Positions 4,285-62,393 of a stretch of DNA of 64,000 bases are shown here, piece by piece. Numbering within the stretch: the stretch's first letter is position 1; each line of letters opens with the position of its first letter. Below the pieces are notes generated by a model. The model did no database searches. It saw nothing but the letters and a program-made list of their open reading frames with translations, and was not told the origin of the DNA. The translations under genes were made by a program, and so were the position numbers. Source of the stretch: Chiloscyllium plagiosum (lineage: Eukaryota); NCBI RefSeq assembly GCF_004010195.1, contig NC_057718.1, positions 6,424,857 to 6,488,856 of the forward strand. Reading direction: 5' to 3'.

Positions 4285-4545
4285 GGTAAAAACAATGACT
4301 GCAGATGCTGGAGACCACAGTCTAGATTAGAGTAGTGCTGGAAAAGCACAGCAGGTCAGGCAGCATCCGAGGAGCAGGAAAATCGATGTTTCGGGCAAAA
4401 GCCCTTCATCAGGAATACAGGCAGCGAGCCTGAAGGGTGGAGAGCTAAGTGAGAGGAGGGTGGGGGTGGGGAGAAAGTAGCATAGAATAGAATAGGTGAG
4501 TGGGGGAGGGGATGAAGGTGATAGGTTAGGGGGGAGGGTGCTGAG
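4285..4545 (-). mobile_element. Penelope-like element 3' fragment, family A
   Basis: Similar to 46040-46500; carries a hammerhead motif and the pyrimidine-rich UTR (minus strand). Confidence 0.75.
4381..4416 (-). ncRNA. Minimal hammerhead ribozyme motif (family A; helix III CG>CA decayed)
   Basis: Minus strand: attc CTGATGA a gggc tttt gccc GAAA ca TC gatt. Confidence 0.6.
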
Positions 4546-4611
4546 ATGACAACAATCAGTTGCAAGTATTTCCATTCACAAAGTTCCAATGCGCCCCTCA
4601 CTCATTCCTGT

Positions 4612-4926
4612 GGGCGGCACGGTGGCACAGTGGTTAGCACTGCTGCCTCGCAGCGCCAGAGACCCGGGTTCAATTCCCGACTCAGGCGACTGACTGTGTG
4701 GAGTTTGCACGTTCTCCCCGTGTCTGCGTGGGTTTCCTCCGGGTGCTCCGGTTTCCTCCCACAGTCCAAAGATGTGCAGGTCAGGTGAATTGGCCATGCT
4801 AAATTGCCCGTAGTGTTAGGTAAGGGGTAAATGTAGGGGTATGGGTGGGTTTCGCTTCGGCGGGTCGGTGTGGACTTGTTGGGCCGAAGGGCCTGTTTCC
4901 ACACTGTAATCCAATCTAAATCTAAA
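4612..4926 (+). mobile_element. HE1-type V-SINE, CpG-rich young copy
   Basis: Complete GGGCGGCACGGTGGCACAGTGG head, GGTTCAATTCC B-box, V-domain, tail and AATCT repeats. Confidence 0.95.
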
Positions 4927-5742
4927 TTCCCCTCCAATATACAAAAGAAATGCATCTCACGAGACTTAAAGCTCATTATTTTTTAACTAGTCTGATAAAT
5001 GCATGAATACTCCGAATATTTACCGTGTGCTTCTCAAACCCAAACCCCCAAATAGTCTAGATGTGGAAATGAGCAGTCCGTGTTGTTTGGTGTGACTAAA
5101 CATCCAATGCTATTGATAGAGTGCCCACATGAACTTCAGTCACATGTTTGTGGTGACCAGGCCTACACCAAACCCCTGGGGTAAAAACAAATGCTTATTT
5201 TAGCAAGAAACCAGTTGGAACCCTTTGTCCAAGTTTTTGGAGATCCAAACATGTCAGATCCCAAATCCATGATCTCCCAAACCCATGACTGCATCCAAGA
5301 TGGAGGGAATTCGGAGATTGCATGTCCTGTGTGGAATGTAAAGAGTTGCTACAATGGCAGGGCATGCAAGATAGAATGCAATATGTCCATTGCTCAATCA
5401 CTCAGCATTAGGCCATCCTGAATTCGTCCCCTTGTCGCAACTAATTCAAAAATATGTTGTCAAATGTGGCTGGAGCTGGAGCTAATGTGAGACAGATATG
5501 AATAAAATATTTTATTTCCAGCCCAACTATATAATTCCATCGATAACTGTGTTTCAGAGGGAGATAGCACAATGCTGGCTTTGAACATTTCTCATGACTC
5601 ATTTTCTCAAACTGCTGACTCAGTGTAAAAGATAACCCATATTTTCAAAGTATCTTTCAAATCACAAGGATGTCACAAAAAATGTGGAATACAGCCTTGG
5701 TGGAGATGCTGTCCCATTGAAGGAAAGGTGCCATCCAGGTTT

Positions 5743-5939
5743 AGGGCGTAGGTTTGCTCGCTGAGCTGTAGGTTTGATATCCAGATATTTCATTACCTGG
5801 CTAGGTAACATCATGAGTGGCGACCTCCAATTGAAGGTCAGGAAATGAAACGTCTGGATATCAAACCTACAGCTCAGCGAGCAAGCCTACACCCTAAACC
5901 TCAACCTGAGCTACAAACCTTCACAAACCTTGCAAAATA
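5743..5939. mobile_element. Palindromic Penelope-like element, family C, with decayed hammerhead
   Basis: Inverted arms (5737-5792 vs 5846-5901); TSD CCATCCAGGTTT at 5731-5742 and 5940-5951; minus strand 5781-5820 cca CTCATGA t gttacc tagcca ggtaat GAAA ta TC tgg. Confidence 0.7.
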
Positions 5940-6254
5940 CCATCCAGGTTTTGTGTAACCCAAACTCCTGACCAGATCATTTGCTTTTGGGATGCTGAGT
6001 AAGAGATAGATGTTGATTGGAGAGATATGAGGGAAAGCTTCAAAGTGTTGCCATTGAAAAGCTCTTACATAATACACCTGACAGATTTTATACTCATCTA
6101 ACCTTTGGGACATCAAGCAGTGTACCCTCACTGCTGCACAGAAACTTGTTAACTCTATAATGGAAAATTGTTATCACTGAGTAAGATGCTGTAGCATTCC
6201 AAAGGGCAGGTAAGCATGGTGTGTGATGTGGCATAGTTAGGCTGAAGTTGGTAA

Positions 6255-7030
6255 GGAACATAGAAACTAGGAGCAGGTGTAGGCCATTCGGCCCATCGAG
6301 CCTGCTTCACCATTCAATACGATCATGGCTGATCGTCCACCCCTCCTCTCCCCTTATCTTTTTGATCCCTTCACCTCTAAGAACTATATCTAACTCCTTC
6401 TTGAAAACACTCAATGTTTTGGCCCCAACCTCCTTCTGTGGTGGAGAAGTCTCTAGCATCCCTATTGTCTGGGTGAAGACCTTCCTCCTCATCTCTGTCC
6501 TCAGTTGGTCTATCCCATAACCTTAGACTGTGGCCCTTGGTTCCAAATTTCCAGGTTATTGAGAACATCCTTCCTGCATTTACTCTGTCTAGTCTTATTA
6601 GAATTTTATAGGTTTTGATGAGATCTCCCTTGTTTTAATAAACTTGTGAATATAGCCCTAATCAACCCTGTCTCTCTTTCTTTCGTCAGTCTTCCATCCC
6701 AGGAATCAGTCTGCTAAACCATTGGTGCCTCTCCATTGCCAGAACATTCTTCCTGAGATAAGGAGACCAAAACTGCACACAGCACTCTGGGGTGTTGCCT
6801 CACAGGGACAATGTACAGTTGCAGCAAGACATCTTAGCTCCTGTACTTAAATCCTCTCACTATGAAGACAAACGTACCAGTCGCCTTCTTTGTTAACTGT
6901 TGAACCTGTATATTTTCAGCAACTGATATACAAAGACACCTTTCCCAATTTAAGACCATTCAGATATTAATCTGTCTTCCTGTTTTTGCAAGCAGAGTAG
7001 ATATCTTCATATTTATCCATGTAATATTTC
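6255..7030 (-). mobile_element. CR1 LINE 3' fragment
   Basis: Minus-strand CR1 ORF2 C-terminus (FTQ...EV.AKTLSVFKKELD) plus 3'UTR. Confidence 0.8.
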
Positions 7031-7099
7031 CATGCATTTTTCCATGCCATGTTTACTTCCTTGCAGAGCTTAGTGAACAGGTTAGAATATTTTTGTTTT

Positions 7100-7412
7100 A
7101 GAATTAGAAACATTCCCTTCGCCCCAACAAGTCCACAGGGACCCCTCCGAAGAGTAGCCCACCCAGACCCACTCTCTTACATTTGCCCCTGACTGACGCA
7201 CCTAACCTAAACATCCATGCACACTATGGGGCAATTTAGCCTGGCCAATTCACCTAACCAGCATATCTTTGGATTGTGTGAGGAAATCAGAGCACCAGGA
7301 GGAAACCCACACAGACACAGGGAGATTATGCAAACTCCACACAGGCAGTTGCCTCAGGCTGGAATCGAACTGAAGTCCCTGGTGTTGTGAGGCAGCAGTG
7401 CTAACCATCGAG
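7100..7412 (-). mobile_element. HE1-type V-SINE
   Basis: Reverse complement of HE1 head, V-domain and tail. Confidence 0.85.
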
Positions 7413-7429
7413 CCATCCCACTCTCTGGA

Positions 7430-8040
7430 GGAAAAAATATTATGGCAATCTAAAACATTCCTCAGCACTTTATTGTACAGGACGTTGATTAAGACACTTA
7501 TGGAATGTTGTATGCATTGCAATTCTGGTCTCCCTGCTTTAAGGAAGATGTTGTGAAACTTGAAAAGGTACAGAAAAGATTTACAAGGTTGTCGCCAGGG
7601 TTGGAGGGTTTGATCTATAATGAGAGGGTGAATAGGTTGGGGCCATTTTCCCCAGAGCTGAGTGGTGACCTTATAGAGATTTATAAAATCATGAGGAGAA
7701 TGGACAGGGTGATTAGCCAAGGTCTTTTGCCCAGGACAAGGGAGTTGAAATTAGAGGACATAGGTTTCAGGTGAGTGTGGAGCGATTAAAAAGGGACCTA
7801 TGGGTAACTTTTTCACGCAGAGGGTGATGTGTGTATGGAGTGAGTTGCCAGAGGAATTGGTGGAGACTGGTACAATGACAACATTTAAAGGCATCTGGAT
7901 GGGTATATGCATAGGAAGAATATAGAGGGATATGGGCTAGATGTTGGCTTTTGGGACTAGATTGGTTTGGAATATCTGGTCAGCACGGACAAGTTGGACT
8001 GAAGGATCTATGTCTGTGCTGTACATCTCTCTGACTCAAT
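7430..8040 (+). mobile_element. CR1 (HER1-like) LINE 3' fragment
   Basis: ORF 7505-7774 QFWSPCFKEDVVKLEKVQKRFTR...GDLIEIYKIM. Confidence 0.9.
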
Positions 8041-8879
8041 GAACTTTATTGATTGAAAAATAGTAGGTTCAAACCCATCACTGAATCCACTCCTAGGTAT
8101 GTTGATAGAACTCTGGGGTCTTATCAAAGTGCCAATTCTCACTCATGAAACAAGAGTTACACAAGGTACCAAAGATTCACGCAATTCCATTCTAAAATCC
8201 AACATAAGAGTTTGGACCATTAATCAACCGTGGGAACTCTGGCTGACTCTCCTTTCCTCTCTAGTCCACGGGTGCTAACTAATTTTGAGTTTCTCTGCTC
8301 AGTAGAAAGGATATTGAAGCAGGGGTTTCCCTGGTATTTCCACATCCATATGAACCTCCGATTAACTCAATCCTTCGGTGCAGCTAAATATTGCATTATG
8401 CAATGAGTGCGGTCTATTCAAGGATGCATTGCTTGAGAATAAGAAAAGTCCAGTTTAACAAAGGAGCGCAGACTTCTACCGCAACAGGGAGCCTCACTGT
8501 CGTGGCAAAACACCCGAGGATGGTAAATATTGCCAGTGTCACCCTCGAAAATGTCCCACTTCCACAGGATCGGGATTGGAATGGACTGGGATTCACATTT
8601 GCTCCTTTTGCTGAGGCAGCTAGTTGATTCCATCCCCATTCAAGTTGGATTTCGGTCACCTTGGAATGTGAATCCTGAAGTTTTAATCTGGTGGGCACAT
8701 GGATGATCTTTCTGCACCCATTTAGATAGCCAGCGTACCTCTTTGGAGACTCTCATTGTGTTAACTGTTTACTTTTTAGAAATACTTACGGAAACAGTTA
8801 CTGGCTGTTTTTATGTTTCCATTATCTTTCTCCCATTCTGTAGTTATTACCTACATTTTTTTTAGCCATTTGTATTCAG

Positions 8880-9300
8880 TCTGATCATTTATCACACGAT
8901 TCATTTTTGCATAATGATGTGTTTTATCTTTATATTTGATATCATCTTTGTCTTTTCTCATTAACCATAGATGGTTGGTTGTTCCTTGAAATTGTTTTTA
9001 CTTGTTGGAATGCATCCATTCCTTGTTTTATGAAATATCTCGTAAATGTCTTCCATTGACATGTTGATTTTGACCAGTCTGCTGACAGTTCCAGTAAAGA
9101 GTTTATGTGTTTTTTTATTGCATGTTTATGTCCACTTTTAACCATTCCAAAAAAGATCCTCGCCTCCCTTAAGGGACATTTGGCTTTCACTAAAGTTATC
9201 CCATGATTAGATTCAAAGAGGTATCCTGCCGACCCAAAAATATCCATCAAATTCCAAGCTGTACTTCCATGCATTCATTTACACTATTCATGTTTCACAC
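8880..9300 (-). mobile_element. Old CR1 ORF2 internal fragment
   Basis: ORF 8942-9274 resembles the CR1 endonuclease-RT linker (QWKTF...); highly degenerate. Confidence 0.45.
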
Positions 9301-9369
9301 TTCAAGGTTTGCAAATCGCATTTCACTGGATTAACCCAACCATTTAAATGGCCACCATGAACTGCTTAT

Positions 9370-9680
9370 ACATAGAATCATGGTTGTCTACCATCCAGTA
9401 AAAGGCCCATCGGCCCATTGCGTCAAAAGCAATCCTCATCCCATTTTCCAGCACTTGACCCATAGCTTTGTGTATCTTGGCATCACAAGAGTACATCTAA
9501 AGATTTCTTCAATGTGATGAGGGGTTTTGCCCCTCCCACCCCTTACAGACAGGGATTTCCAGATTCCCACCACCCTCTGGGTGAAAAAGGGTTTTTCCTC
9601 ACAAATCCTCGAAACTTTCATTAAATCTATACCACCCCAGGCATTGATCCCATGAAGAGGAAACGTTTCTTCCTGTCTAC
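9370..9680 (-). mobile_element. CR1 LINE 3' fragment
   Basis: FFTQRVVGIWKSL motif in ORF 9436-9621. Confidence 0.8.
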
Positions 9681-10069
9681 GCTGTCAGAAAACATGTCCC
9701 ATCCTGAGAAAAATAGCAAGCATCATGGTTGTAGGATGGAACTTGCTGGTTTTGGTCACTTCCACCATTTTCAGCACAACAGAGAGGCTCTTTGTCATGG
9801 CAAAAGTACAGGCCTTAGCTTTGTCAAGGCAAGTCCTTTAAATAAAAATCTCTGCACACATTTCCAGTGCAAAGGTTGTTCCTCTGGTACCTTATTGCAA
9901 GTCAAACCCACAGTTTCTATTGAGCTTGAACTTGAACCAAATGCACTTTTCGCCAAATAACTGTTTACACTTTTTGAATTTCTTATTGGTTTTTCCAAGC
10001 TCCCTGCTGAAGACACCTGCGTTCCCAAGTGGAATTGGATTCAGACTAAATCCAAGTTCTCTTAGTGGC

Positions 10070-10610: not shown

Positions 10611-10829
10611 TAGGCATTACGTTTATACAGGATCTTTCTCTAACTGTAATTGCCAGTTAACTGTCTTTAAAATGTTTGCAAAGAGCCAAGGTCTTGACTC
10701 CCTTCACTTTTAATGAGTTAGATATCAAGTTGCAGGGATAGGTACACCTCAATTATTTTCCACTTCATCATAATATTATCCTATTGACCAAGAGTGGACG
10801 TTCTTACTACAAATCTGCTCCAATATCGA

Positions 10830-13765: not shown

Positions 13766-13785
13766 CTTATTTTCAAGCTTTGCTG

Positions 13786-14140: not shown

Positions 14141-14239
14141 CAACCGGAGTTTGCTGAGTCAAATGAGCTCCTGCACTGACTAATTCTTTCAAAGTAGACA
14201 AAGACATGATATTAGATATTCAAGCTTTCATGAGATTTG

Positions 14240-14650: not shown

Positions 14651-14659
14651 GGATGTCAC

Positions 14660-14790
14660 ACATGGTGGAAAAGCTCAACAGGTCTGGCTGTATCTGTGGA
14701 GAGAAATCAATGTTAACAAATGCTGCCAGACCTGCTGAGCTTTTCCAGCAACTTTTGTTTTTCTTTTTGATTTACAGCATCTGTGTTTTT
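14660..14790. mobile_element. Penelope-like family D palindromic remnant
   Basis: GGAAAAGCTCAACAGGTCTGGC / GCCAGACCTGCTGAGCTTTTCC inverted arms. Confidence 0.65.
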
Positions 14791-14814
14791 TGGTTTTTGT
14801 CACACAAGTGGGCT

Positions 14815-14905
14815 GCTTTCCTGACGAAGGGCTTATGCTCGACACATCGACTCTCCTGCTCCTTGGATGCTGCCCGACTGTCTGTGCTCTTCCAGCACCA
14901 CACAC
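14815..14905 (+). mobile_element. Penelope-like family A fragment with decayed hammerhead
   Basis: CTGACGA a gggc ttat gctc GACA ca TC at 14821-14848. Confidence 0.7.
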
Positions 14906-16252: not shown

Positions 16253-16894
16253 TGGGCATAATGAAGCTGCTCCTTTAGCAAGGTATGCTGTCCTTGGGTT
16301 TTTTTTCCAAAGGTCGTAAAAACACAAGTCTGGGCTTGGAAGGGTTTTGGGGCCAATTTGATTATAGCTAACAGATACTGCCTCAAACAAAAGGCTTTCG
16401 AGTTAAAAAAAACACACTTGTACACTGAAAGGCGAGTGGCCAGTTCTCCCAGCTTAGCTTCTCTCTGGTTTGATTTTATTTTTGGGCAGTCTGGCTATTC
16501 ACTGAAAGCAGTCAGGCAGTTATAATGCCTGCTGGACCCAAAGAAGCAGGTCTATGCTGACCCTGTCTGACTTCTCTCCTGGAAGACCCGGGTTTGATTT
16601 TACCTTAGTGCCAAGGGGTATTTATGGGGATTGTTGCAAGAATTTGTAACAACATCATTAAGGTAGGATAATCTGTTGGGTTTTCGGATAGGTTAAGTTA
16701 TTCTGTATTCTGTTTTGTTTGCGTTTCATTTGGTAATCTTGTAAATAAATTCTGTTTTGTTTAAAACTAAGTGGTTTGACCAGCTGAATCACTCCTAGAA
16801 TATCCATGCTATACCTGCTTAAAACAACTGGGAAAGTTAAGGCCTGGGATACTTTCTTGAAAGGTTTTGAGGGGGTCTGGCCTGGTCCATAACA
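16253..16894 (+). mobile_element. Solo LTR-like element
   Basis: ~640 bp insert ending CCATAACA, with an internal AATAAA near 16745; interrupts a family B arm. Confidence 0.55.
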
Positions 16895-16968
16895 CAAGTT
16901 ACAGTCCCAGAAGTTTATTTGAAATCATAAGCTTTCAGACTGCTGCTCCTTCATCAGGTGAAATTACT

Positions 16969-17005
16969 TCATCTGATGAAGGGGCTACGCTCCGAAAGCT
17001 TGTGA
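16969..17005 (+). ncRNA. Minimal hammerhead ribozyme motif (family B variant)
   Basis: tcat CTGATGA a ggggc tac gctcc GAAA gc TT gtga; helices I and II pair using G-U wobbles. Confidence 0.7.
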
Positions 17006-17209
17006 TTTCAAATAAGCCTGTTGGCCTATAAGTTGGTATCATGTGACTTCTGACTTTAAAGCTTTATGGAATGCCGGTTGGGCCCAGCTAGAACCTCACA
17101 CCTACCCTTCAGGAGGATGCAGAGGAGATTCGTTAGACAAGATTATATAGAGGGACTGAAGAAGGTGGGATTGTTCTCCTTAAACAAAGAGGATTTGAAA
17201 GAATTAAAT

Positions 17210-21209: not shown

Positions 21210-21349
21210 TAACCAACCCACCACCACCTGATGAAGGAGCAACGCTCCGAAAGCTAGTGCTTCCAATTAAACCTGTTGGACTGTAACCTGGTGTTGTGTG
21301 AGTTTTTAACTTTGTTCACCCCAGTCCAACACCGGCATCTCCAAACCAT
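21210..21349 (+). mobile_element. Penelope-like family B single-arm insertion
   Basis: TSD AACCAGCAACAT at 21198-21209 and 21350-21361. Confidence 0.85.
21225..21259 (+). ncRNA. Minimal hammerhead ribozyme motif (family B, intact)
   Basis: cac CTGATGA a ggagc aac gctcc GAAA gc TA gtg. Confidence 0.75.
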
Positions 21350-22107: not shown

Positions 22108-22190
22108 GTTAAAAGTCACACAACACCGGGTTATAGTCCAACAGGTTTAATTGGAAGCGCTAGCTTTCAGAGCGCTGCTCCTTTGATGAT
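22108..22190 (-). mobile_element. Penelope-like family B fragment
   Basis: CACACAACACCGGGTTATAGTCCAACAGGTTTAATTGGAAGCGCTAGCTTTCAGAGC. Confidence 0.75.
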
Positions 22191-30804: not shown

Positions 30805-30900
30805 TAGAGGTAAAAACAATGACTGCAGATGCTGGAAACCAGATTCTGGATCAATGGTGCTGGAAGAGCACAGCAGTTCAGGCAGCATCGAGGAGCTTCA
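30805..30900 (-). mobile_element. Penelope-like family A 3' end
   Basis: GGTAAAAACAATGACTGCAGATGCTGG, as at 4285. Confidence 0.7.
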
Positions 30901-32136: not shown

Positions 32137-32239
32137 CTTTTATAGGATCCCTGAAGAAGGGCTTATGCCCGAAACGTCGATTCTCCTGCTCCTCGGATGT
32201 TGCCTGGCCTGCTGTGTTTTTCCAGCATCACATTTTTCA
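32137..32239 (+). mobile_element. Penelope-like family A single-arm insertion
   Basis: TSD ACAATTTGATAGA at 32124-32136 and 32240-32252. Confidence 0.85.
32147..32182 (+). ncRNA. Minimal hammerhead ribozyme core (family A; helix I weak)
   Basis: atcc CTGAAGA a gggc ttat gccc GAAA cg TC gatt. Confidence 0.6.
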
Positions 32240-32596: not shown

Positions 32597-32817
32597 ACAA
32601 AACAGAAATTGGGGGAGAAACTTAGCAAATCTGGCAGCATCTGTGGAGAGAAAGCAGAGTTACAGTTTCACAGAAAGCCTTTGTCTGATGAAGGGTCAAT
32701 GGACCCAGATGTTAATTCTGTTTCTCTCTCTCTCTCCACAGATGTTGTCAGATCTGCTGAGATCTTCCAGCAATTTCTATTTCCGTTTCTGATTTCCAGA
32801 ATCCACAGATCGTTCTT
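32597..32817. mobile_element. Palindromic Penelope-like family D element
   Basis: Inverted arms; TSD GAGGTTATTCAGAA at 32583-32596 and 32818-32831; CTGATGA a gggtc aatg gaccc at 32685-32706. Confidence 0.8.
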
Positions 32818-35835: not shown

Positions 35836-35884
35836 TGGCCCTGCCACCTCAACGATGCCTGGAGTCCCCACTGAGGAAGACAAT

Positions 35885-36110
35885 GAACAGAAGAAATGTC
35901 TTTATTGTTTACTCAGTGAGAAGATGGTGGTAATCAGAAATGCACTGCCTGGGAGGGTAGTAAAGGCAGAAAACCTCACAACCTTTGAAAATGAGCACTT
36001 GAAATGGCACAACACTCAGGCCTGTGGGACTGATGCTGGGAAATTTAATGTGTGGAGATAGGCCGACACTGGCTCAATGGGCTGAAGGAGCTGTTCTTTG
36101 CTGCACAATT
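35885..36110 (+). mobile_element. CR1 LINE 3' end
   Basis: RNALPGRVVKAENLTTF plus 3'UTR. Confidence 0.7.
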
Positions 36111-43429: not shown

Positions 43430-43530
43430 ACACCAGTGCTGCTCAGTTTGAAAGTCAGTGTTTCCAAATAAACCTGTTGGACTATAATCTGGTGTCATGT
43501 GATTTTTAACTTTGTCCACCCCAGTCCAAC
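43430..43530 (+). mobile_element. Penelope-like family B fragment
   Basis: AAACCTGTTGGACTATAATCTGGTGTCATGTGATTTTTAACTTTGTCCACCCCAGTCCAAC. Confidence 0.7.
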
Positions 43531-43845: not shown

Positions 43846-46039
43846 TGGAGCTTCCATCAACCTACTGTATTAGAATCCAGTTTGCGAAGATGGGAAATTG
43901 TTTTGTTTCTTGATTGGTTGTGCCTTGTGCTCAAATAAAAAAAGGAGTTTTTATTACATGTTATTACACAAAAATACCTGAAAATGTTTTGCCTTCTTTT
44001 CTGAAGAGCACTGAAAAAGAGACAATGGTCTGGGGCTAGAGTTACCTGCCCACTCCTCAGGTGAGTTTGGGTGTTGGGGAGGAGCTTGCTAGCTCTACCT
44101 TGGTTAGGCCCATAGTGTGGAAGCTTGTAGATGGCTTCCTGCTTCAACACCACAAACCACGCCTTGCTGTGCACGTAACCCCATCTTGCTGCTGCTTGTA
44201 CTAACTTAGAGTTATGCGGGGGTGGAGTAAGAAGGTGTTCAACATGTGGAGGAGTGTCATAAGGGACCTTTGATAGACTGACTGCAGGCTCGCAGGGAGT
44301 AGGGCGTTAGGCCTTGTTCAAAAGGCCCTAAAAACTTGATGGAGGGCGTCTGCGAAGTCCTTATTGACTCCCCAAAACCATGGCCTGGCCTCATTCCATC
44401 ACACACCTGTGTCCTGCGGGTGCCGTTAGAACAGCAAACACCACCTCCTCGGTGTTTTCACTTGATCTGTTGGCCACTGTTTGGCCATGTCTGGAGAGGA
44501 GCCAGACATTCAGCATTCAGCCTGGATTTCCAAGCATGGCTCAGTGGTCCTTGTGGATAGGATGTGATATTACGCACAGTCAATCTTCCTGATAACACTT
44601 ACCGTCTAGGCTCTTCCTTACAGAATGAGTAAGTGGGTGAGGAGTTGCAGTGCTGCTGGTAATTATACAATCAGTGGGAGTCAGGTTCTGAGGGGGTTTA
44701 AGAAATTGACCAGCTTCAGGCTGGTGGGATGAATAGCCTCCACCCTTTTCTTCTTGTTCTTTAGAGGAGGATCTTAACTTGTTGGGAGAACAAAGACAAT
44801 AGCAACTCAATCTGAACAGGAAACCCCCAACAGGTAAATCTCCATCCATGAGAAAGCGAGGATTAATCTTTTAGCGTTGGATTCCACCCAAAAGATTAAC
44901 TCATCTTTCTGGGTCAGTTAATGGATGCTCTGTCTTTCTGTTTATAGTTTGTAAAAAAGAGGAAATCTCCCAGCCACAGTGCGACCTAAAGAGAACATGT
45001 CTCGTTTGGTGTGATTAATAATCAGTGTGACATCCTTTTGTCTGTCCCTGCCAACATTGCTTGATTCCTTCTCCAGTTGGAAGAGTCCAGGACTATCTGT
45101 TTACTCAATTAATCTTCCTTCCAGTGTGGAGGTCAGGAAGTTCTCCAATAACCCTTCTCCTTCCATTGCCATTTCACCTTCCCTATTTCAACAGTGAAAA
45201 TAAAGTCCCTGCAATTCCCAGCAATGGATGACTCAGGCAACAGAGGAACTCATGCAGTGTCTTCAGCTAGCAAAGATGGAGTGAACTGAGTGGTTGGACT
45301 GAGTTCTCTACGAGGTGTCATTATCTATGCTGTGGACATATCTGGATTGCAGTTTCTGTTACCAGTTTTCTCTTTTCATTATATTGTGTCTGATGCTCAG
45401 CAGGAATGCTATCATGTTGTTGCCTGGCATGTTTGATCATACGAAGGGCAGGATAAATCAATGAGCCTGATTTATTTATGGTTGATAATTGCCATTTACT
45501 CTCTTGAATGACTGCAAAGGAATCACTGAGTGCAGGCCATTTTTTTTTGAGGTGACAATTCCAACTTGAAGCTGTGAACTGTGGGCAAGTGTCTCAGGAA
45601 TTGTTCAACATTGGAAGGAATTAGCAATCCCCGATGCTGTTTTATATCCCAGTGAGCAATAATGGCAACACAATTAAGAAGTGCAGTCATTGAGAAAGGC
45701 TAGCACAGCTATCTTTATATGCTGTCTCCAATCCAAGATTGAAAGATAAATCGGGAAGCACCATGATTGGTAATGGTGATGTGTTTGGAGGGTAAAAGGA
45801 TTAATCACAACTGACTTTGTTGTGCTAATAATGAAGCCATAGCACTAAAAGATTCCCTTTGGGGGCAAATGATGGAGAAACACATTCTCTTGGAAGAGTC
45901 TCAATGACAAACAACAGCAATGATAAATGTAATTTTAGACTCTAGACTCACTCAACACTCCAACAGAATCCATCATACTAAAACCAAGGCAAGGGAAAGT
46001 GAGAAAGATCGATATTTGCATGATGACATCTTGCCTGCT

Positions 46040-46500
46040 ATAGGAGAAAGTGAGGGCTGCAGATGCTGGAGATCAGAGTTGAAAATGTGTTGCTGGAAAA
46101 GCGCAGTAGGTCGGGCAGCATCCAAGGAACAGGAGAATCGACGTTTCGGGCATAAGCCCTTCTTCAGGAATGAGGAAAGATAAAAGGTAGGGAGGAGGGA
46201 CTTGGGGGAGGGGTGTTGGAAATGCGATAGGTGGAGGAAGGTCAAGGTGAGGGTGATAGGCCAGAGTGGGGTGCCAGTGGAGAGGTCAGGAAGAAGATTG
46301 CAGGTTAGGAAGGCAGTGCTGAGTTTGAGGGATTTGACTGAGACAAGGTGGGGGGAGGGGAAATGAGGAAACTGGAGAAATCTGAGTTCATCCCTTGTGG
46401 TTGGAGGGTTCCTTGGCAGAAGATGAGGCGCTCTTCCTCCAACCGTCGTGATGCATGGTCTGGCAATGGAGGAGTCTAAGGACCTGCATGTCCTTGGTGG
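46040..46500 (-). mobile_element. Penelope-like element 3' fragment (GIY-YIG C-terminus, UTR and hammerhead), family A
   Basis: Minus-strand translation KDMQVLRLLHCQT / RRLEEERLIFCQGTLQPQGMNSDFSSF, matching the PLE GIY-YIG end motif R.LEE..LIF.LGTL.P.G.N. Confidence 0.8.
46136..46171 (-). ncRNA. Minimal hammerhead ribozyme motif (family A, core intact)
   Basis: attc CTGAAGA a gggc ttat gccc GAAA cg TC gatt. Confidence 0.7.
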
Positions 46501-48160: not shown

Positions 48161-48267
48161 TAGCATCATGAGCCTAGAGCTTCAAGCCGAGAGGCAGAGA
48201 CACTGCCTACTCAGCTTCAAGACCTCTCAAGGGACTGGGTAAAACCCTAAAAGTAAATTGTTCTGAT

Positions 48268-48405
48268 CAGTTCTGAAGGAGGGCCACTGCACCCAAAATG
48301 TTGACTTTGCTTTCTCCCCACAGACTCTGCCAGACCTGCTGAGTTGCTCCAGCAATTTCTGTTTTAGTTTCAGGTTTCCAGCATTTGCAGATCTTGGTTT
48401 TATTT
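48268..48405 (+). mobile_element. Penelope-like family D single arm, decayed hammerhead
   Basis: agtt CTGAAGG a gggcc actg caccc AAAA tg TT gact. Confidence 0.65.
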
Positions 48406-51140: not shown

Positions 51141-51978
51141 AAAAAAAATGGGAGGAGAGATAATCGGCTGGGTCGCAGATAAAAGACAAGCGCAGCAGCT
51201 GCAGGAGGATAAGGAGGGTATGGTTGGCGAGAGAGAAAACTCAGCAGAGTGCAATCATAGTTCGAGGGAACATCTGTAAAAATGGACCCTTTGAGTTTTT
51301 CTTTTATATTGTCAGACAGCAGGCTGCAAAAAATAAACAGACCAGGAGTCTGAGACGATGAAAGGAAGCCACACTCAGCAGTGATGAGATCAAACTGTCC
51401 AATGGCTATGCCAGTGCATTCTTTGCCGTCCGTGTCTATGAATAGCTGTCCCACTTAATTTCCAAAGTTCAAATGAGGGATTATTTACCAGAAAGCACAG
51501 TGCTTTCACTGTCACAGAATGTTTTGATCCTCTGGATGTTGGGTCAGACATTCTCTGAGCATGTCCTGCTCAACCTGATGCCTCATCCCCTGCCAATTTA
51601 CAGTGGGTAATCCATGGACATTTGGTTGTGTTTTCAAATAAAGCTGTTGGGCTATAACCTGGTGTCTGTGACTTCCATTGAAATGTGAAAGCAAGGAAGA
51701 GATGCAGAATCAATTACCCAGAAGAAGCCTTTCTGTTTGAATATTATTATCAAACTTTTATTCCAACCTGAGTCATAGAGTCATACAGCTCGGGAAACAA
51801 ACCCTTCGGTCCAACCAGTCCATGCTGAACATAATCCCAAACTAAACTAGTCCCACCTGCCTGCTCCTGACCCACATCCCTCCAAACATTTCCTATTCAT
51901 GTACCTACCCAAACATCTTTTAAACATTGTTAAAAATCACAACACCAGGTTATAGTCCAACAGGTTTAATTGGAAGCA

Positions 51979-52013
51979 CACTAGCTTTCGGAGCGACGCT
52001 CCTTCATCAGGTG
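51979..52013 (-). ncRNA. Minimal hammerhead ribozyme motif (family B, intact)
   Basis: cac CTGATGA a ggagc gtc gctcc GAAA gc TA gtg. Confidence 0.75.
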
Positions 52014-52034
52014 ATTGTGGAGGGCTCGATCGTA

Positions 52035-52071
52035 ACACCTGATGAAGGAGCGTCACTCTGAAAGCTAGTGT
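52035..52071 (+). ncRNA. Minimal hammerhead ribozyme motif (family B, helix II partly decayed)
   Basis: acac CTGATGA a ggagc gtc actct GAAA gc TA gtgt. Confidence 0.65.
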
Positions 52072-54739
52072 GCTTCCAATTAAACCTGTTGGACTATAAC
52101 CTGGTGTTGTGTGATTTTTAACTTTGTACACCCCACTCCAACACCGGCATCTCCGAATCATGACTTTTAAACATTGTAATTGCACCCACATCCATCCCTT
52201 CCTCGGGAAGTTCATTCTTTGCGTGAACCAACCACTGTGTTAAAAATGTGCCCTCGTGTCTTTTTTAAAATCAATCTCCTCTCATCTTTAATATGTGTCT
52301 CCCAGTCTTGAAATCTCCAATTCTAGTGAAAAGACCCATGTCTATACCCCTCATGATTTTATAAACTTCTCTAAGGTCACCTCTCAACCTCCCACATTCC
52401 ATGAATTTAACATCTGACAGAAGGTTTGGCAAAGCATCACTCAATCAGGATTTCCTCTGAATTCATAGCTCAGCTAATCCACTCATGTTCTGAAGTAGCT
52501 TGTCAAACCCAGTCAGCTTCTGCTATTTTGTTTACAGGATTCACTGATGCTAGATAAACTACATGCAAATCAGTGATTTATCAATCTGTTTGCATCCTGT
52601 CTGTTACAAAAAAGACCCTTTGCAGGCTTTGTTACAATCCTAGTTTTGACAAGTTCCAGACAGGATATTTCACGCCATTGAGCCTCTGAATGCAGAGGAA
52701 CACACTGGATCTCACCTGGTTCTTTATTTACCCATTTCTTCGGTTCGTTGTAATCCAGTTAACTTAGAAAATACCCCTTCCTTTGTGCATACCTTTCTCC
52801 CAGATGCCATGAACTCATGTTTTAAAAGGAACCAATTTAAACAGGCACCATGAATTAACAAAAGAAATGAATTTATTAATTACTAAGCGTCAGAAGCAAC
52901 ATATATACATACAGATTCAAAATAAAAGCCGAGTCCAAAAAGACTAACGTGTACAAAATACATAGAGGATCAGTCACTAAATTGCTCTTGAAGAGTAGAT
53001 AGTTGATAACTTTTTCTCAAGGGTTATGGCGAGAAGGCAGGATAGTGGGTTTGAGACGTAGTTCAGCCAAGATTGAATAGGGGAACAAACTCAATGGGCC
53101 AAATGGTCTCATTCTAATTCTTTATCTTGTGTTTGTAACCATTGTAGTGAAGGTCACTGGTAGCACTGGCATTGATAGTTGAACAGTTGTCGTTGTTCTG
53201 GACAGTTTTGGCTTTGTAGGGCGGTTGAAGTTTCTTAATCTTCTATATCCTTGGTATGCAACACTCCAATAGAGAGCATTCCTCCTTTACCTGCAACACA
53301 GGGGTGTAATGACAAGGATAATTTTTCAACTATGACCAATACGGCATCCTAAAGTTTGAACTTAATATGTTACATCTGAGAGCGTTCAGCCCCACTAGTC
53401 CATTCCTGCAGAGTTAAAACTGACTTTTTAGCCTCTATCCTTAAGATTTTGGAAGTTAAAACAGACATATCTACAAAAGATGGCTTTCTGGTTAAACAGA
53501 ACCAAATGTCAGCCACTTGTTATTTCTTCTTGTCACGTCTCTCCATGCTTGAAATGTCATTGACAATTTAAGTGTAACATTTCATGGGGCTTCACTCAGG
53601 ATTCTGCCAGACAGTCACTGAATTTAAATCTGTAGTTTCTCCGTAGCAATCCTCTTTTTGAAATCAGCACATTTTGGAATTAAAAGTAAAAGGATGTCCA
53701 TAAGTACTTTACGATTCTAATCCAACATCATAAGACAAGCTGAATGAACATCTTAAATTACAGACTAAACACTTACAAACTTTAGTGTGCTTTAGGAGAA
53801 GCTGCCCATCATGGGTCTGACATGCTGTCCATTTATTGTAGCCTCATGTTGTCTGATATGTTTGAGGTGCAGTATTCCTTACCGTACATTACCTGATTCC
53901 ATATCGGTATCTTATCAGATTCCATATTGTATCTAGTATTCAAGTCATCATCATTGCAATACTCCCTTATTAGTCCAAAAACATGCCAATGATTTTCTGG
54001 CATTTCACAAATGAACACTTACAAACACATTGTAATAAGCTTTGCAAACAAAGTTAATAAAAATTTCATTTTGCAAACACATTGAGTTAATTTAATCCCT
54101 TTAATTATGACAAGCTTGCAAGAGAAACACTTGGCATACACCAGAATCACAACATAAAATCTTCGTTTTGCTTTGATGGTCTTTTACTTGTACCTTTTGT
54201 CTCAGGAACTCCGGTCAGCTCAGCAGGATTAAGACATTTCATTGCCCCCTTTGGAACCCCCTTTTGATTCTTTCTTCCCCTATAACTCTGTCACAGCTCC
54301 GACATCTGGTTCATGTGCTGCTCTGTCTTTGACATTATGATATCATTTTCTACATGAAGAATTTCTGTCCCACTTCTGGTGATTGCTTGGGAATCTGTTT
54401 CCCTTCTTGGTGATGACAGTGCACAACATTGAGTGTCTTTCCTAAGATGGCTCTGCCATCTCATCTCCTGGCACCACACCAGACTATCTAGCTTCATTCC
54501 TGAGGTTTACATGAAACATTGCAGCAACCAGTTTCTCATCATCTTGATCTCAGGCCTCCTGGTCATCACTAATGTCCTTCAGCTCTAGTATTCTGGTGTA
54601 CTTTCCATATTCAAAAACAATTCAGTAAGGCTCAATCCCATTATAGTTTGTGGAGTTACTCTAAACAGGGTGTCTTATGATTGCAACATTTGCTTTAAAT
54701 CATTGGTCTCAGTTTGAACTTCCAAAACTCATCTGTTTC

Positions 54740-56162: not shown

Positions 56163-56184
56163 CTGTGTTTGACAACCTAAGATA

Positions 56185-56380
56185 GGATAAAACTGAAAGA
56201 ACTGCAGGTGCTGTAAATCAGAAACAAAGTTAGAAATTGCTGGAAAAGCTCTGCAGGTCTGGCAACATCGGTGAAGAGAAAGCAGAGTTAAGTGACCCTT
56301 TCTCTGAACTCTGTCTTCTCTACATGGATGCTGCCAGACCTGCTGAGCTTTACCAGCAAGTTCTGCTTTTGTTTGTCTCT
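56185..56380. mobile_element. Palindromic Penelope-like family D element
   Basis: TGCTGGAAAAGCTCTGCAGGTCTGGCA / TGCCAGACCTGCTGAGCTTTACCAGCA inverted arms. Confidence 0.7.
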
Positions 56381-56384
56381 GATA

Positions 56385-56850
56385 CATTCTCACACATTAG
56401 GTTATTTAATAAGACAAAGGCCCCCGCTGTTGGAGGTAGAATATTGACTGGATAGAGCATGGCTAACACGTAGAAAACAGAGGATAGGCCATTCTCAGGA
56501 TGGCAACCTGTAATCAGTGGAATGCCAAAGGGATCAGTGCTGGTAATACAATTATTTACAACATGTATTAGTGTCTTGAATGAGGAGAGTGAGTGTATTC
56601 TTGCCAAGTTTGAGGATGACACAAAACAGGTCAGAAGGCAGGAAGTGATGATAACACAAAGAGGAACATAGATCAGTTAAAGCAAATTGAGCAAAAGCTT
56701 GGCAGGTGGAATATAACATTTGAAAATGAGAAATTGTGCACTTTTTAGGAAGAATAGAGGAGTTGAATATTTCAATGGAGATAAACTGCAAAAAGCTGCG
56801 ACACAGGGATTTGGGAGTGCTTCTGCATAAAACACACAAAGCTTCCTCCT
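56385..56850 (+). mobile_element. Old CR1 RT fragment
   Basis: SG.P.GSVL, KFEDDTK motifs. Confidence 0.7.
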
Positions 56851-57713
56851 CTAATGATGATTCTGCTTGTTCAATTCTCATTCTGGACAGTCTTTCAGTG
56901 ATGTTCAATATGGACCACAAATATGTACACTTGTCACAAAAACCATCCTTCTGTTTTGACACTTGCTTTGGATCTTGAAGAGTAAGTAATTGTAATCCGT
57001 CACCAATTCAAACTCCATGCTGAGAGAGTATTCAGGGAATTTTTCATATGCCAAACCAATCCTCGACCTTTTCAGTTAGCTGAGCGTATCTTCTCTCCAC
57101 GTCTGTCGGAGATCTGCTTGCATAGGCAGTCATTTGTGAATCCACAGCGGGTATTTCGGACATAGGAGAGTACAGCAGAGGATCAGGCCTTTTGACCCAC
57201 TGTACTGACCGTTCTAAACTAATCCCATCTGCCTACACATGGTCCAAAACCCTCCATTCCCTGGCTGTCTTGCATCTGTCTAAAAGCCCTTTAAACATTG
57301 CTATTGTCTCTGCTGACAGTGTCTGATGTTACTGTATGTGTATTGCCACAACCACAATGGGACATGTCTCTGGTTTTGGTATTTCACTGTGTCCGGGGTA
57401 TCTTGGCGAAGCAAGTCAATCTTTGCTTTAATTTTCCCTGTCAGACCAGATGTTCTGTACACAGGTTGAGCTGCAGATCTCATCTGGAGCTGGTGCAAAT
57501 TCTGAATTTGGTTGAAACACTGGTTGAGACTGCTCTCTGAGCTTCACACAGGAATTCATCAGGTTATAGCACCCTCTTACTTGTGGAGTTCCCTCGCTCA
57601 GAGAGAGTCACTATCCAGTTCAAACACCATGAATTCTGACTCGACAATCTCAATCCCAGCATTCAGGTCCACGATGAAACATTTAATCATTTGAACTGGG
57701 GTTTTAAATGTAT

Positions 57714-57983
57714 CATAGATCCCTACAGTTTGGAAGCACACCATTTGGCCCATTGAGTTCACACCGACCCTCCAAAGAGCGTCTCATCCAGACCCACTCG
57801 ATCCCTATAACTCTACCTATTCTATTCAATCCACCATAACCTGTGCATCTCTGGAGGAAACCAGAGCACCCAAAGGAACACACGCAGACATGGGGAGAAT
57901 GTGCAAGCTCCACGCAGATAATCACCCGAGGGTAGGATTGAACCAGGGTCCCTGATTCAGTGAGGCAGCAGTGCTAACCACTG
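57714..57983 (-). mobile_element. HE1-type V-SINE
   Basis: Reverse HE1 head and V-domain. Confidence 0.85.
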
Positions 57984-59182
57984 ATAGAGCACTGATAAAG
58001 ACCTATAGAACTTTCTGAATCATTTTTACTATATGCATTCATTTGTCTTTATCTGTTGTGTGTGGGCACCATTGAGTCCAAAGTTATTGCTGCATTAGGA
58101 CCTTGGAGCAACATCACAATGATATCATAGAGTTGCACATCACTGTCTATAAATACCACAGTGAGGATGGAGTTAGAGCATGGAATATTCTGGACATTGA
58201 CTGCACACTATCGAAGTCTACATCAGACGCACCACACCATAAATGTGAACACAAAATGAGGTGGATTAGTCCTTACCTGATATAATGATTTAAAGTTGGA
58301 TGACCATGACTAACATTCCCTCAGAGATTATAAGGAAAAGATTAGTCCCACGTCTGACTCCAACAAGCTGTTTCTTTCGTCTCATCAATCCATGTGATAT
58401 TATCACAGTGGCTGGGCTGGGGCAGGCGTTTGGGAAGGAGTTTTGAATGCTTATTGCACTCAATCAAGTCTTAACTCTTTCAGAACTATACACACCTGAT
58501 ACTCTTTATTAATGTGGAAGGTTCTTCATTGGAAGGTGGGGAATGTGGACACTCTGCCTGTCTCTTAATCACCTCAGGCCCCACTAGTGAATTTGCACTA
58601 AGAGGAGATAATTGCTCACTGTCCTGAGTGGAAATCTGATTCAGCATGGTTTCAACTTCCTCTGTCTATCGCTCGATGTCCTCATGAGTGCTCGAGACAA
58701 TCCAATTACTGCCTGTCTGCTTACAATTCCTCTCAGAGATTGCTGACTGGGAATCTGAACCCTCTTCACTTTTAATAACAATGGAAGACATTTCAACCAA
58801 ATCACTATTGTCACATCTTCCTATCACTGTCACACCCGTGTATAATAAATTATTATCAATTTTGGAATTTCGATTTTACATAAAAAAGAAATGCAGATTG
58901 ATTTTGGTTCGCTCTTTGAGGTAGATTGTTTAAAAGAATATATATTGTTTAGACAATAACTTAAATACATCATTTCTAGGAAGGGAAATGACTTCAGTCA
59001 ACTGCATAGAGGGCCCTCTGGTGAAAATGGATAAACTGTTTATACTCTTGAATTTGTGATAAATAATATAAATGAGATGAGGCAATCAGTTTAGCTTTGA
59101 CTGCATAACAGAAGTTTCAAACTCACCATTCAGAGGAATGTGACATTTGTTCAGAAGATAGGACCAAAAGCAATGGCAGTAG

Positions 59183-59305
59183 ACATGATGTGGAGATGCT
59201 GATGTCGGATTGGGAAGGTCAGAAGTCACACAACACCAGGACATAGCCTAACAGGTCTATTTAAAATTATAGGCTTTTGGAACACAGTTCCTTTGACAGG
59301 TGAAG
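59183..59305 (-). mobile_element. Penelope-like family B fragment, old
   Basis: GGAGATGCTGATGTCGGATTGGG...AGAAGTCACACAACACCAGG. Confidence 0.6.
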
Positions 59306-59624
59306 GGTGGCAAATACACGGGATACCCTGCATGCTATCCTGATTGAAAGTATCTTGCCATTCCCTCATTGTCATTGGCCCAAAGTTCTGGAGCACATGG
59401 TCTTAACAATTCTATGGCAGCGCCTTAACAACTTGGACATCTTGTAGTTCAAGATGACACTCACTGCCATCTCTTAAAGGACAATTAGTGCGATGAATGC
59501 TGGTCTTGAGCAGCACTCTCATCTCATGAATGAATTGTTTTCCAATCCATGTCGTCCCAAGACACAATTATAGTGGAGCCTTTGGCCAACCAATCTCTAT
59601 CAGTGAGTCCACAATAGATCCAGG

Positions 59625-60330
59625 TATGAGGTGACAACACAAAGTTAGGTTGGAGGGTCAACAGTGAGAAGGATGCAAAGATACATCAGTGTGAATTGTT
59701 TTAGAGAACAAACACATGGAAGATGAAATGCAATGTGGGTAAATGGGAAGTTATCCATTTTAGCAGCAAAAACAGGCAGATGTATTGCTATCTGAATGAC
59801 AATAGATTGGGCAAGGGATGGACGGTACAATGAGATTTGGGTGTCCTTGTATGCCAGTCACTGAAGGTAAGCACTGCAGGTACAGCAGGCAGTGAAGAAG
59901 GTCAGTGTTGTTTTGGCCTTCATAGCGAGAGAGTTCGAGTACAGGAGCAGGGATGTCTTGCTGTAATTGTACAGGGTCTTGGTGAGACCGCACTTGGAAC
60001 ATTGTATGCAGTTCAGAAGAATGAGGGGTTTGCCATAGAAACCAATACAATTCTAACAGAAAAAGACTGGGTAATGCAAGAAGAAACAAAAACAGAAATT
60101 ACTGGAAAGTCCCAGCAGGTCTGGCAGCATCTATGGAGAGAAATCAGAGTTAAATTCTTGGGCCCAGTGCCCCTTCCTCAGAATGGAGCCTTCAGTTCTG
60201 AAATGATTACTGGACCGGAAACGTTAACTCTGATTTCTCTGCACCAAGGCTGCCAGACTTGCTGAGCTTTTCCAGCAAATGTCAAAGGGCTGAATGGCCT
60301 ACCCCTATTCCTACTTTCCATGATTCTATG
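59625..60330 (+). mobile_element. CR1 fragment interrupted by a family D palindrome
   Basis: DDT.LG, EYRSRDVLL.LYRVLVRPHLE motifs; tail at 60283-60330. Confidence 0.8.
60083..60280. mobile_element. Palindromic Penelope-like family D element
   Basis: Inverted arms; agtt CTGAAAT...GAAACGTT aact at 60194-60229. Confidence 0.7.
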
Positions 60331-60830
60331 TGAAAAAACCTCTGAGTGCTGGAAAGCTGTGGGAAATATACATCCAAATTTACAGGCACCACCAACCTTG
60401 TGTCATGGCTCCATTGCTCACATCCTGAAACATTATTTTCACCTCTTAGTTTGCTTCCCCATCTGCCTCTCCTTTCCCAGTTCCACTCACTTTGAATCAA
60501 TGTTGTGTTTCAGCCAAATTCTCAGACACATAAGGGTGTCCTGCCAGAAAATAAATTACTGAACTATCCAATCCACTTTCCTGAACCACAGCCTTGGGCA
60601 TGGGGTGAGTAGTTCATCTCATTTCATTCCAAATCTACCGCACTGTGGCTGGAAAAATGTGAAAACGTGTTTCCAAAATTTCAAAGATAACAATAAGAGA
60701 TGCCACTGTTTTATTTACACATTGTTCCCCACGGTCCGATTTGGGGACAACCAGATCCTGACCGAACTCTCCAAATGATGGCAAGGATTTCTCTTACCGT
60801 ATTACATCGGTGACGGCGTGTCCAAATCTC

Positions 60831-61050
60831 GGAGGAAGTGGGTACTGCAGATGCTGGAGATTAGAGTCAAGATTAGAGTGGTGCTGTAAAAACACAGCAG
60901 GTCAGGCAGCATCTGAAGAGCAGGAAAATCGATGTTTTGGGCAAAAGCCCTTCATCAGGAATGAAAGGTTTTTGCCCGAAACATCAATTTTCCTGCTCTT
61001 CAGATGCTGCCTGACCTGCTGTGCTTTTCCAGTACCTCTCTAATCTTGAC
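60831..61050. mobile_element. Palindromic Penelope-like family A element
   Basis: 60866-60955 inverted relative to 60962-61050; flanked by CCAAATCTC at 60822-60830 and 61057-61065. Confidence 0.85.
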
Positions 61051-61054
61051 ACAT

Positions 61055-61950
61055 GCCCAAATCTCATCAATTCTAAGCATTGAAGAATGTCAGCCAGTCC
61101 ACACTATAACAAAGTCTCGTATATCAGCCCACACCACCACCTATATATGTTGGAGAGTCTCTGGAATATGTAAAGTACTTCCCATACCTTAGCAACCATC
61201 TTTATCACAAAGTCAACGGCAATGTCCAACTAGTCAACCACACCAGCTAGGCCTTGAATGTACTCCAGCAGTAACTGTTTGGCTTGACAATAAGGACTAC
61301 CATGAGTCAACAGCAGGCACAATACAAAGGGCAGTTATGGCCATCACACTCTTGTACAGCAGTGAGTACTAGATTATGTAGCAATGACACAGAAAGGTGC
61401 GAGAGAAACTCCATCGGAAATACCTCCACCACATTCTCCAGATTTTATGGGATGGCCATTGAACAAATATGGTCACCTTTCTTGAATGCCAGCATTCAGC
61501 CTAACTTCTCCAAAGTCAGCTTTGATAGACTGAAAAATGTGTCAGGAAAGGTCCCACACAAGATACAAAGGAATATTGATTATTACGCACTCAACTAACC
61601 AAATTTCAGTTAATCTGAACATGATCGTAAGGTCCAGATGCTTGGCTAAACTATGTTATCCGGCATTCAATTATCTGGCATTCGATTAAGCAAATGAAAT
61701 ACTCCCCACCCTTGTCTTTTTGGATAATCGAAGTTCCTCTGTACTGTTTTGCCAATGGCCAGCTGTCCAGAGACAGTCAAAGAAAACTCCTCAAAGATCC
61801 TCTGAAGCTCTCCTTGAGGCCCGGTTGAATGACATAAATGATGGGGAGGGGCTCGTGCGAGACTGGGGAGGGCGATGACCTGTCCAGCAAACTGTGTCAT
61901 GCTTTGAGTGACAATGTGGTAAAAATCAGATAGAGAAACAGCCAAGAAGG
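61055..61950 (+). mobile_element. Degenerate RTE-clade LINE fragment
   Basis: TK..YQP, YFPYL and QRK..KD.LK.SL-like motifs; a pogo-like end (GGATAATCGAAGTTCCTCTGTA) is nested at ~61650-61745. Confidence 0.5.
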
Positions 61951-62075
61951 AAGGAAAACGATGTCAATGTGAATCCTGCTGCCTTATGGGACTTTTCACT
62001 CGATCGCTGCCAGTCAGGATTTGTTGAGTCACATGAGGGCCCCAGGCAGAAACATCTGACCTGAGTAGGTGGCAT

Positions 62076-62289
62076 GATTTGGAGATGACGGTGTTGGACT
62101 GGGGTGTACAAAGTTAAAAATCACACAACACCAGGTTATAGTCCAACAGGTTTAATTGGAAGCACACTAGCTTTCGGAGCGTCGCTCCTTCATCAGGTGA
62201 CTGTCATCACTGAAGGAGCAGCAGTCCGAAAGCTAGTGTGCTTCCAATTAAACCTGTTGGACTATAACCTGGTGTTGTGTGATTTTTAA
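62076..62289. mobile_element. Palindromic Penelope-like family B element
   Basis: Inverted arms; imperfect TSD CTGAGTAGGTGGCAT (62061-62075) / CTGAGTACTTGGCAT (62290-62304). Confidence 0.88.
62165..62199 (-). ncRNA. Minimal hammerhead ribozyme motif (family B, intact)
   Basis: cac CTGATGA a ggagc gac gctcc GAAA gc TA gtg. Confidence 0.75.
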
Positions 62290-62393
62290 CTGAGTACTTG
62301 GCATCCTTAAATCTTCGGAACAGTTTACAATGATATTGGGTCTATTTTACACCTTCCTGATATCACTCCTTTGCCTCTTTTCAAGCCACAATA

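Follow-up and report, generated by a model that had tools for sequence, protein, structure and literature searches.

The window analysed here, a stretch of 64,000 nucleotides from the genome of Chiloscyllium plagiosum (assembly GCF_004010195.1, contig NC_057718.1, positions 6,424,857 to 6,488,856 of the forward strand), is interspersed with short repeats that carry hammerhead ribozyme motifs and that very probably represent 3'-terminal pieces of four families, A to D, of endonuclease-positive Penelope-like elements (PLEs), each with one minimal type I hammerhead. The window holds 31 PLE fragments, together 2,450 bp or 3.8% of its length, and seven head-to-head pairs. Sixteen hammerhead remnants are recognisable, of which six are fully intact and one more is marred only by CpG decay of helix III. 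The eleven sites listed in a preliminary description of the window are all present with the layout given there, and the dense seeding it proposed is borne out by the genome-wide counts below, although its figure of about eight near-intact motifs has to be lowered to six or seven.

Family A occurs in two forms, A1 and A2. A 3' fragment of A2 on the minus strand (46042..46255; 61.8 bits, E 4e-15) is the long form with its tail, reaching from about -106 to +125 relative to nucleotide C3 of the hammerhead, and contains an intact motif at 46134-46173. On the plus strand a solitary A2 copy (32147..32236) starts 4 nt before C3 and stops at the short 3' end; the core of its hammerhead (32145-32184) is intact, and most of the 5' strand of helix I is gone. 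The A1 copy (4331..4476, minus strand, -64 to +81) likewise retains an intact core at 4379-4418, with the helix III palindrome decayed from CG to CA. Further family A material consists of plus-strand fragments at 14720..14902, with a decayed hammerhead at 14815-14854, and of a head-to-head pair at 60831..61039, in which the minus-strand hammerhead (60925-60964) has GAAA changed to AAAA and the inverted arm covers 60961-61039 of the plus strand.

Family B contributes a solitary plus-strand copy (21219..21312, -9 to +85) with an intact hammerhead at 21222-21262 and three head-to-head pairs. The first of these (51929..52124) combines an intact minus-strand hammerhead (51976-52016) with a decayed one on the plus strand (52033-52073) and folds into a long hairpin. 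The second (62111..62291) has an intact minus-strand hammerhead at 62162-62202 and an inverted plus-strand arm, 62211-62291, that starts at +4. The third (16888..17056) belongs to a subfamily with a GUU cleavage triplet; its plus-strand hammerhead (16967-17007) is paired and its minus-strand counterpart (16923-16963) is decayed. Family C is present as one head-to-head pair (5750..5935), composed of a minus-strand remnant at 5781-5826 that reads CTCATGA (G5 to C) and has a CpG-decayed helix III, and of an inverted plus-strand arm at 5839-5935. Only decayed hammerheads remain of family D, namely those of the head-to-head pairs 32636..32744 (32677-32719, plus strand) and 60126..60244 (60146-60187, minus strand; 60192-60231, plus strand) and that of a plus-strand copy at 48266..48324 (48267-48308).

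The consensus of each of the four families follows the type I order, with CUGANGA and GAAA boxes and a UH triplet in which H17 is C in A and C, A in B and U in D. A relaxed descriptor was run on 208.9 kb, consisting of the window and 48 loci that are enriched by design, and returned 57 unique sites, all of them from families A to D, with none in the reversed control. The extra nucleotide that the preliminary description placed after every CUGANGA is indeed found in 57/57 sites as an unpaired base after A9; this base is U in family C, with a single C, and A in the other three families. The pair G10.1-C11.1 is present in 18/22 A, 19/22 B and 14/15 D sites. Helix II comprises 4-7 bp and helix I is open. 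Helix III amounts to a 4-nt palindrome, ACGU in A, C and D and AGCU in B, again as previously described; the palindromic AxxU is retained in 51/57 sites and the others are CpG-decayed. A15.1 and U16.1 enclose two bases only, and a single copy therefore cannot close helix III.

The stems differ between families in a compensatory manner. Pair 4 of helix II is C-G in A, G-C in B, A-U in C and U-A in D; pair 3 is G-C in A, A-U in B, U-A in C and G-C in D; and pair 1 of helix I is C-G in A and B, A-U in C and U-A in D. The covariation was compared at the level of family consensuses and includes few independent events. Cross-family pair counts were taken from the descriptor parse because a MAFFT alignment of 13 representatives misaligned family B. 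A covariance model built from A and D (R1) recovers the A and D copies in the window; B scores 14 bits only, for which reason R1 was not used across families. Families A and D can be aligned from end to end and have a homologous 3' module in common, which contradicts the earlier statement that the repeats are unrelated; as judged from their sequences, A and D are sister lineages and B and C are separate. It is this homology that makes the differences between A and D informative: the pair 2.1-1.1 changes from C-G to U-A, the mismatch U.U at 2.3-1.3 becomes G-C, and a U-A pair is added to helix II. The claim that the helices differ completely and yet stay paired thus stands with respect to covariation between families and was overstated with respect to helix I, which has 3-4 bp.

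A comparison of core and flanks had been named beforehand as the refuting test, and it found the core to be the more conserved. Among copies that were not selected for an intact motif (29 A2, 29 B and 30 D), with ends trimmed, 10/298 non-CpG core cells deviate from the majority as compared to 398/3,733 elsewhere (Fisher p = 9e-6), a three-fold lower variation in the core, although there are nine core positions per family and the copies are non-independent. Taken by family, the difference is found in A2 (p = 0.01) and B (p = 0.0003) and is not significant in D. Dead copies decay evenly, and the excess of variation outside the core therefore reflects differences between active lineages in which the core was kept fixed.

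We consider it exceedingly improbable that the motifs are a chance resemblance, in other words that short interspersed nuclear element (SINE)-like repeats happen to contain CTGANGA and GAAA boxes. The boxes are short, and one unrelated match to a loose core pattern (CTGANGA-N8-19-GAAA) lies at 35871-35896; against this, shuffled and reversed controls are essentially empty once the helices are taken into account, the same layout recurs with different helices in four lineages, and a PLE context is found in every family. The loose pattern has 10 matches in the window and on average 3.29 (sd 1.75, maximum 8) in 100 shuffles, none of which reaches 10. A strict descriptor, suggested as a check in the preliminary description, requires helices I and II, GAAA and UH; it yields 5 matches in the window compared to a mean of 0.01 (maximum 1) per dinucleotide shuffle (100 shuffles) and 0 in the reversed window. 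Family A fails this descriptor for the sole reason that its third helix I pair is U.U.

Across the assembly (3.56 Gb, 101,977 contigs) exact patterns match 64,282 times for family A, 14,834 times for family B, 4,001 times for family C and 282 times for family D, and each reversed pattern matches 0 times. The four patterns together give no fewer than 83,399 motifs with an exact core, or about one in every 43 kb. The matches of family C have an intact CTGATGA, so the family of which the window has a dead copy commonly occurs with its core intact. Likewise, the matches of family D show that its consensus, which had been composed from three degenerate copies, is a real sequence.

The affiliation with PLEs comes from the longer copies. 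In family B, locus L045 contains two 229-bp direct repeats that are 93.9% identical, lie 2,517 bp apart and have a hammerhead each; they flank three frameshifted pieces of an open reading frame (ORF) with ADKGG and YVDD motifs, and this ORF begins with its ATG right after the long 3' end of the repeat, about 120 nt past C3. L045 is one element with an ORF between two pseudo-long terminal repeats (pLTRs), and B the only family in which reverse transcriptase (RT) motifs were seen. DKG is a diagnostic PLE motif (PMC8557442). On the strand of the hammerhead and 350-720 nt upstream of it, motifs of a GIY-YIG endonuclease (YIGET or YVGQT) occur in B at L006, in C at five loci and in D at L026, and long A2 copies contain the C-terminal end of a B-like endonuclease frame that ends ~165 nt before the hammerhead. 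Inside the window no PLE coding remnant was found at E < 1e-4.

All four families possess two alternative 3' ends ~35-38 nt apart, roughly 80-90 and 120-130 nt past C3. The flanks at the 3' junction are AT-rich. Reads from thousands of family A copies break at both ends, leaving loose ends that correspond to 46041-46044 and 46079. An optional tail of this kind is regarded as unique to PLEs and is explained by two internal sites at which the RT initiates (PMC11167929). In A, B and D, four or five consecutive T immediately precede the short 3' end (L010, L014, L004, L023 and others), a run that C lacks and that may mark a terminator or the RT start site.

Neighbouring copies tend to be arranged head to head. 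Within the first 100 places listed per family, copies within 1 kb of one another form 6 such pairs in A, 6 in B and 8 in C, and family B has one tail-to-tail pair. Several head-to-head pairs of family B are spaced 929, 1,113, 1,156, 1,188 and 1,343 bp, which suggests a preferred longer arm length. The pairs in the window also attract sub-threshold matches to Rfam microRNA precursors (E 1e-5 to 0.04): those at 51966-52083, 60890-61025 and 32625-32758 are the long hairpins of head-to-head copies, and a fourth at 14662-14751 overlaps a family A fragment and was not resolved as a pair. The coding sequence that longer copies run into, the tail with two ends and the head-to-head pairs together identify the repeats as the 3' ends of PLEs and not as a separate class of short elements. 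The assignment to minimal type I PLE hammerheads from several lineages in the preliminary description is in agreement with the core, the tail, the endonuclease frame and the pLTRs.

The positions at which copies begin are not spread out as random 5' truncation would predict. Starts fall between -8 and +9 of C3 in 28/49 A2 copies, between -11 and +10 in 17/37 B copies and in the bins from -10 to +9 in 25/42 D copies; a second discrete class of starts lies at the pLTR boundary (-143 in B, -64 in A1 and near -220 in D). Forty-four of the loci were picked for a centred intact motif, which excludes starts after C3 there and does not favour -4 over -100. In one raw-read run the depth falls from ~757 inside the family A hammerhead to ~40, or 5%, ten bases upstream, and the upstream residual is 5% and 2.7% in two contig sets. 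Reads of family A have loose ends at -3 and -4 and a recurrent joint to the opposite strand from -4 to +7. By these measures the start lies no more than a few bases from the 5' edge of the hammerhead in ~95% of family A copies, and we infer that the RNA that was copied mostly started at this edge and was uncut.

A number of observations weigh against the interpretation of the repeats as 3' ends of PLEs with functional hammerheads. The Pfam matches are below their curated cut-offs, both that to RVT_1 (E 0.0044, 17.2 bits) and those to GIY-YIG in 3/3 family C copies (E 0.002-0.003, about 18.5 bits). The Rfam hammerhead models (types I, II, III, HH9 and HH10), a scan that the preliminary description had proposed, give no match, whether at the gathering score or with the E limit raised to 10; these models presuppose a real helix III. 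Helix I is short and contains the U.U mismatch in family A, and in family C the pair 10.1-11.1 is G.U in 11/11 sites, with GGTAAC a minority genome-wide. Computed folding energies do not decide for or against the dimer. None of the sampled copies starts at the predicted cleavage site (0/49 A2, 0/37 B), nor do read starts pile up there in one poly-A single-cell RNA run, and thus there is no trace of cleavage in vivo. The library in question shows embedded copies rather than expression of the element, since 95% of its reads continue into unlike sequence. Finally, tandem copies in cis, which would favour the dimer, are rare: the first 100 listed places contain same-strand pairs within 1 kb in numbers of 0 for A, 1 for B and 0 for C.

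The same scarcity of tandems bears on a retrozyme-like, non-autonomous system, which the preliminary description had put forward together with the term 'short PLEs' and in which tandem hammerhead units would be cleaved into single units, closed into circles and mobilised in trans by the enzymes of PLEs. The short units of roughly 95-130 nt that make up ~95% of family A copies are what such a system would produce, solo pLTR-like copies with discrete ends do exist (B at -143, A1 at -64), and vertebrate non-LTR retrozymes have been tied to PLE pLTRs and found in one Chondrichthyes genome (10.64898/2026.07.22.740005). However, neighbours are head to head instead of tandem, the sole B tandem (L047) repeats its flanking DNA as well and consequently looks like a segmental duplication, and all four families join an endonuclease reading frame, with a pLTR-ORF-pLTR element in B. 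We therefore regard a retrozyme-like system as very unlikely and take the copies for fragments of autonomous PLEs. An origin of the short copies from a circular template was also considered and rejected: copies with the short 3' end lack the predicted tail upstream of the hammerhead.

The 5' ends bear on a second alternative, namely that the motif has been kept for a role other than cutting, as a part of the PLE RNA that forms a folded 5' leader or binds protein, and that self-cleavage is rare or incidental. The copied RNAs were uncut through the cleavage site, with the A2 starts clustered around C3 and 0 at +28. In the anole PLE, hammerhead mutants left insertion in vitro unchanged, unprocessed RNA was the main substrate, and no RNA-seq reads ended at the cut site (PMC11167929); metazoan PLE hammerheads are reported to be of low activity in vitro (PMC4209133). 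Yet the invariant positions are exactly those of the catalytic core, and the UH triplet and the dimer palindrome, neither of which a plain structural element needs, are kept in all four families. On balance we think this alternative rather unlikely.

In the interpretation that we prefer, the repeats are 3'-terminal pieces of PLEs with a ribozyme. The hammerhead lies ~75-170 nt past the RT/GIY-YIG stop, and another 80-130 nt separate it from the alternative 3' ends, which constitute the PLE tail signature generated from two internal start sites of reverse transcription. As published work implies, two RNAs may pair via the palindrome to form a double hammerhead; by analogy, cleavage would occur 3' of GUC in A and C, of CUA in B and of GUU in D, probably slowly and aided by protein. 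Most copies would be short cDNAs that were dead on arrival, and head-to-head pairs would result from priming by the PLE enzyme on either strand of the cleaved target.

Why so many copies begin at the edge of the hammerhead can be rationalised if the motif forms the very beginning of the PLE transcript, which might start ~4 nt before C3. The 95- and 130-nt copies may then be complete leader cDNAs, produced when the RT uses the internal start site in the 5' pLTR copy, as opposed to random 5' truncations, and the ribozyme might strip off a capped leader of ~32 nt or, equivalently, only uncut RNA would be copied. We put this forward as a tentative possibility suggested by the positions of copy ends; the alternative to transcription starting there is that the RT stops at the 5' edge of the hammerhead. 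The base that precedes solitary 5' ends is G in 14/40 cases (background 21%) and T in 3/40 (27%), a weak deviation, and G precedes 4/5 of the A2 copies that start at -4. The additional G provides a weak hint of a cap trace.

Dimeric cleavage of minimal hammerheads was reportedly described by Lunse, Weinberg and Breaker in 2017, and metazoan non-LTR retrozymes are said to have been reported by Cervera and de la Pena in 2020. The plus-strand hammerhead of chrysanthemum chlorotic mottle viroid (CChMVd), which according to De la Pena and Flores in 2001 reportedly has an extra A after A9, likewise has an additional nucleotide between A9 and G10.1; unlike the families described here it is a viroid ribozyme of unrelated origin with a full helix III and loop-loop contacts.

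The closest precedent is the minimal hammerhead (min-HHR) of metazoan PLEs. A paper of 2014 by Cervera and de la Pena already lists the extra base after A9, G10.1-C11.1, the palindromic 15.2-16.2, compensatory family consensuses, the location in pLTRs and close pairs on opposite strands (PMC4209133), and the architecture is thus not novel in any of the listed features. The palindrome-mediated double hammerheads are weakly active in vitro (PMC4209133; review PMC6765202). The families in C. plagiosum agree with these ribozymes in their type I topology, full core, unpaired base between A9 and 10.1, G10.1-C11.1 pair and palindromic helix III, and also in the occurrence of several covarying consensuses per genome, the pLTR location, solitary copies and opposite-strand pairs. 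They differ in family C, with its G.U at 10.1-11.1, and in the length of helix II, which has 4-5 bp in A, B and D as compared to 7-8 bp in Schistosoma (PMC4209133). The genome is absent from the hosts named in that paper, which also lists fishes and reptiles and calls the counts in coelacanth (about 4,000) and Xenopus (about 9,000) remarkable (PMC4209133); the copy number here is about ten-fold higher. The kind of motif is therefore already known, and its host and scale are new.

The Poseidon PLE of Anolis carolinensis (PAc; Frangieh et al. 2024, PMC11167929) resembles the present families in having a hammerhead shortly upstream of two internal RT starts and an optional tail of 30-40 nt, in the priming of both target strands, in AT-rich targets and in giving no sign of cleaved RNA as a template. 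The ORF of PAc has its start within the hammerhead, unlike that of family B, where the ATG follows the tail. In one PLE, cleavage needed the element's own protein (PMC11167929). PAc is known from biochemistry, whereas the families reported here are known from sequence. Metazoan non-LTR retrozymes (preprint of Li et al. 2026) are similar in their type I fold, weak palindromic helix III and kinship to PLE pLTRs; they form tandem arrays that give rise to circular RNAs, in contrast to the solitary or head-to-head copies here, which are continuous with PLE coding sequence. One cartilaginous fish has been surveyed, for tandem retrozymes only (10.64898/2026.07.22.740005), and in a literature search that had most subscription journals outside its reach this one-species survey, within the part of the preprint available, was the only work found on PLE hammerheads in cartilaginous fishes.

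These findings add a large, vertebrate-sized genome to the hosts of minimal PLE hammerheads, with a load roughly ten times the counts that were called remarkable in 2014 (PMC4209133). They also have consequences for annotation: Rfam misses all of these motifs, and head-to-head pairs resemble microRNA precursors and could be mistaken for, or serve as, precursors of small RNAs. Intact ribozyme cores in introns or untranslated regions could cut host transcripts. The sharp 5' boundary of family A at the hammerhead edge without ends at the cleavage site, which may be new, offers a cheap genome-wide probe of what PLE hammerheads are for, a question treated as open in PMC8557442 and PMC11167929.

The remaining PLE material in the window lacks a complete core. 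It comprises a 3' fragment of family B on the minus strand (22108..22183) that starts at +6, and coreless fragments at 3227-3302, 43450-43512, 51627-51670 and 60249-60278 on the plus strand, at 30842-30889 and 59223-59256 on the minus strand and at 56237-56359. Elsewhere, one family B copy (L006) is interrupted ~50 nt after its hammerhead by a tRNA-like, SINE-looking sequence, and a decayed-looking, hammerhead-like site on the plus strand of another locus (L008:867-909), with a helix II unlike that of all four families, may represent a fifth family. The family A copy with its flanks (46030-46230) is covered to 0.33-0.80 of sampled words in sequencing runs of four organisms from 9 studies, and the family A repeat seems to be common to related species.

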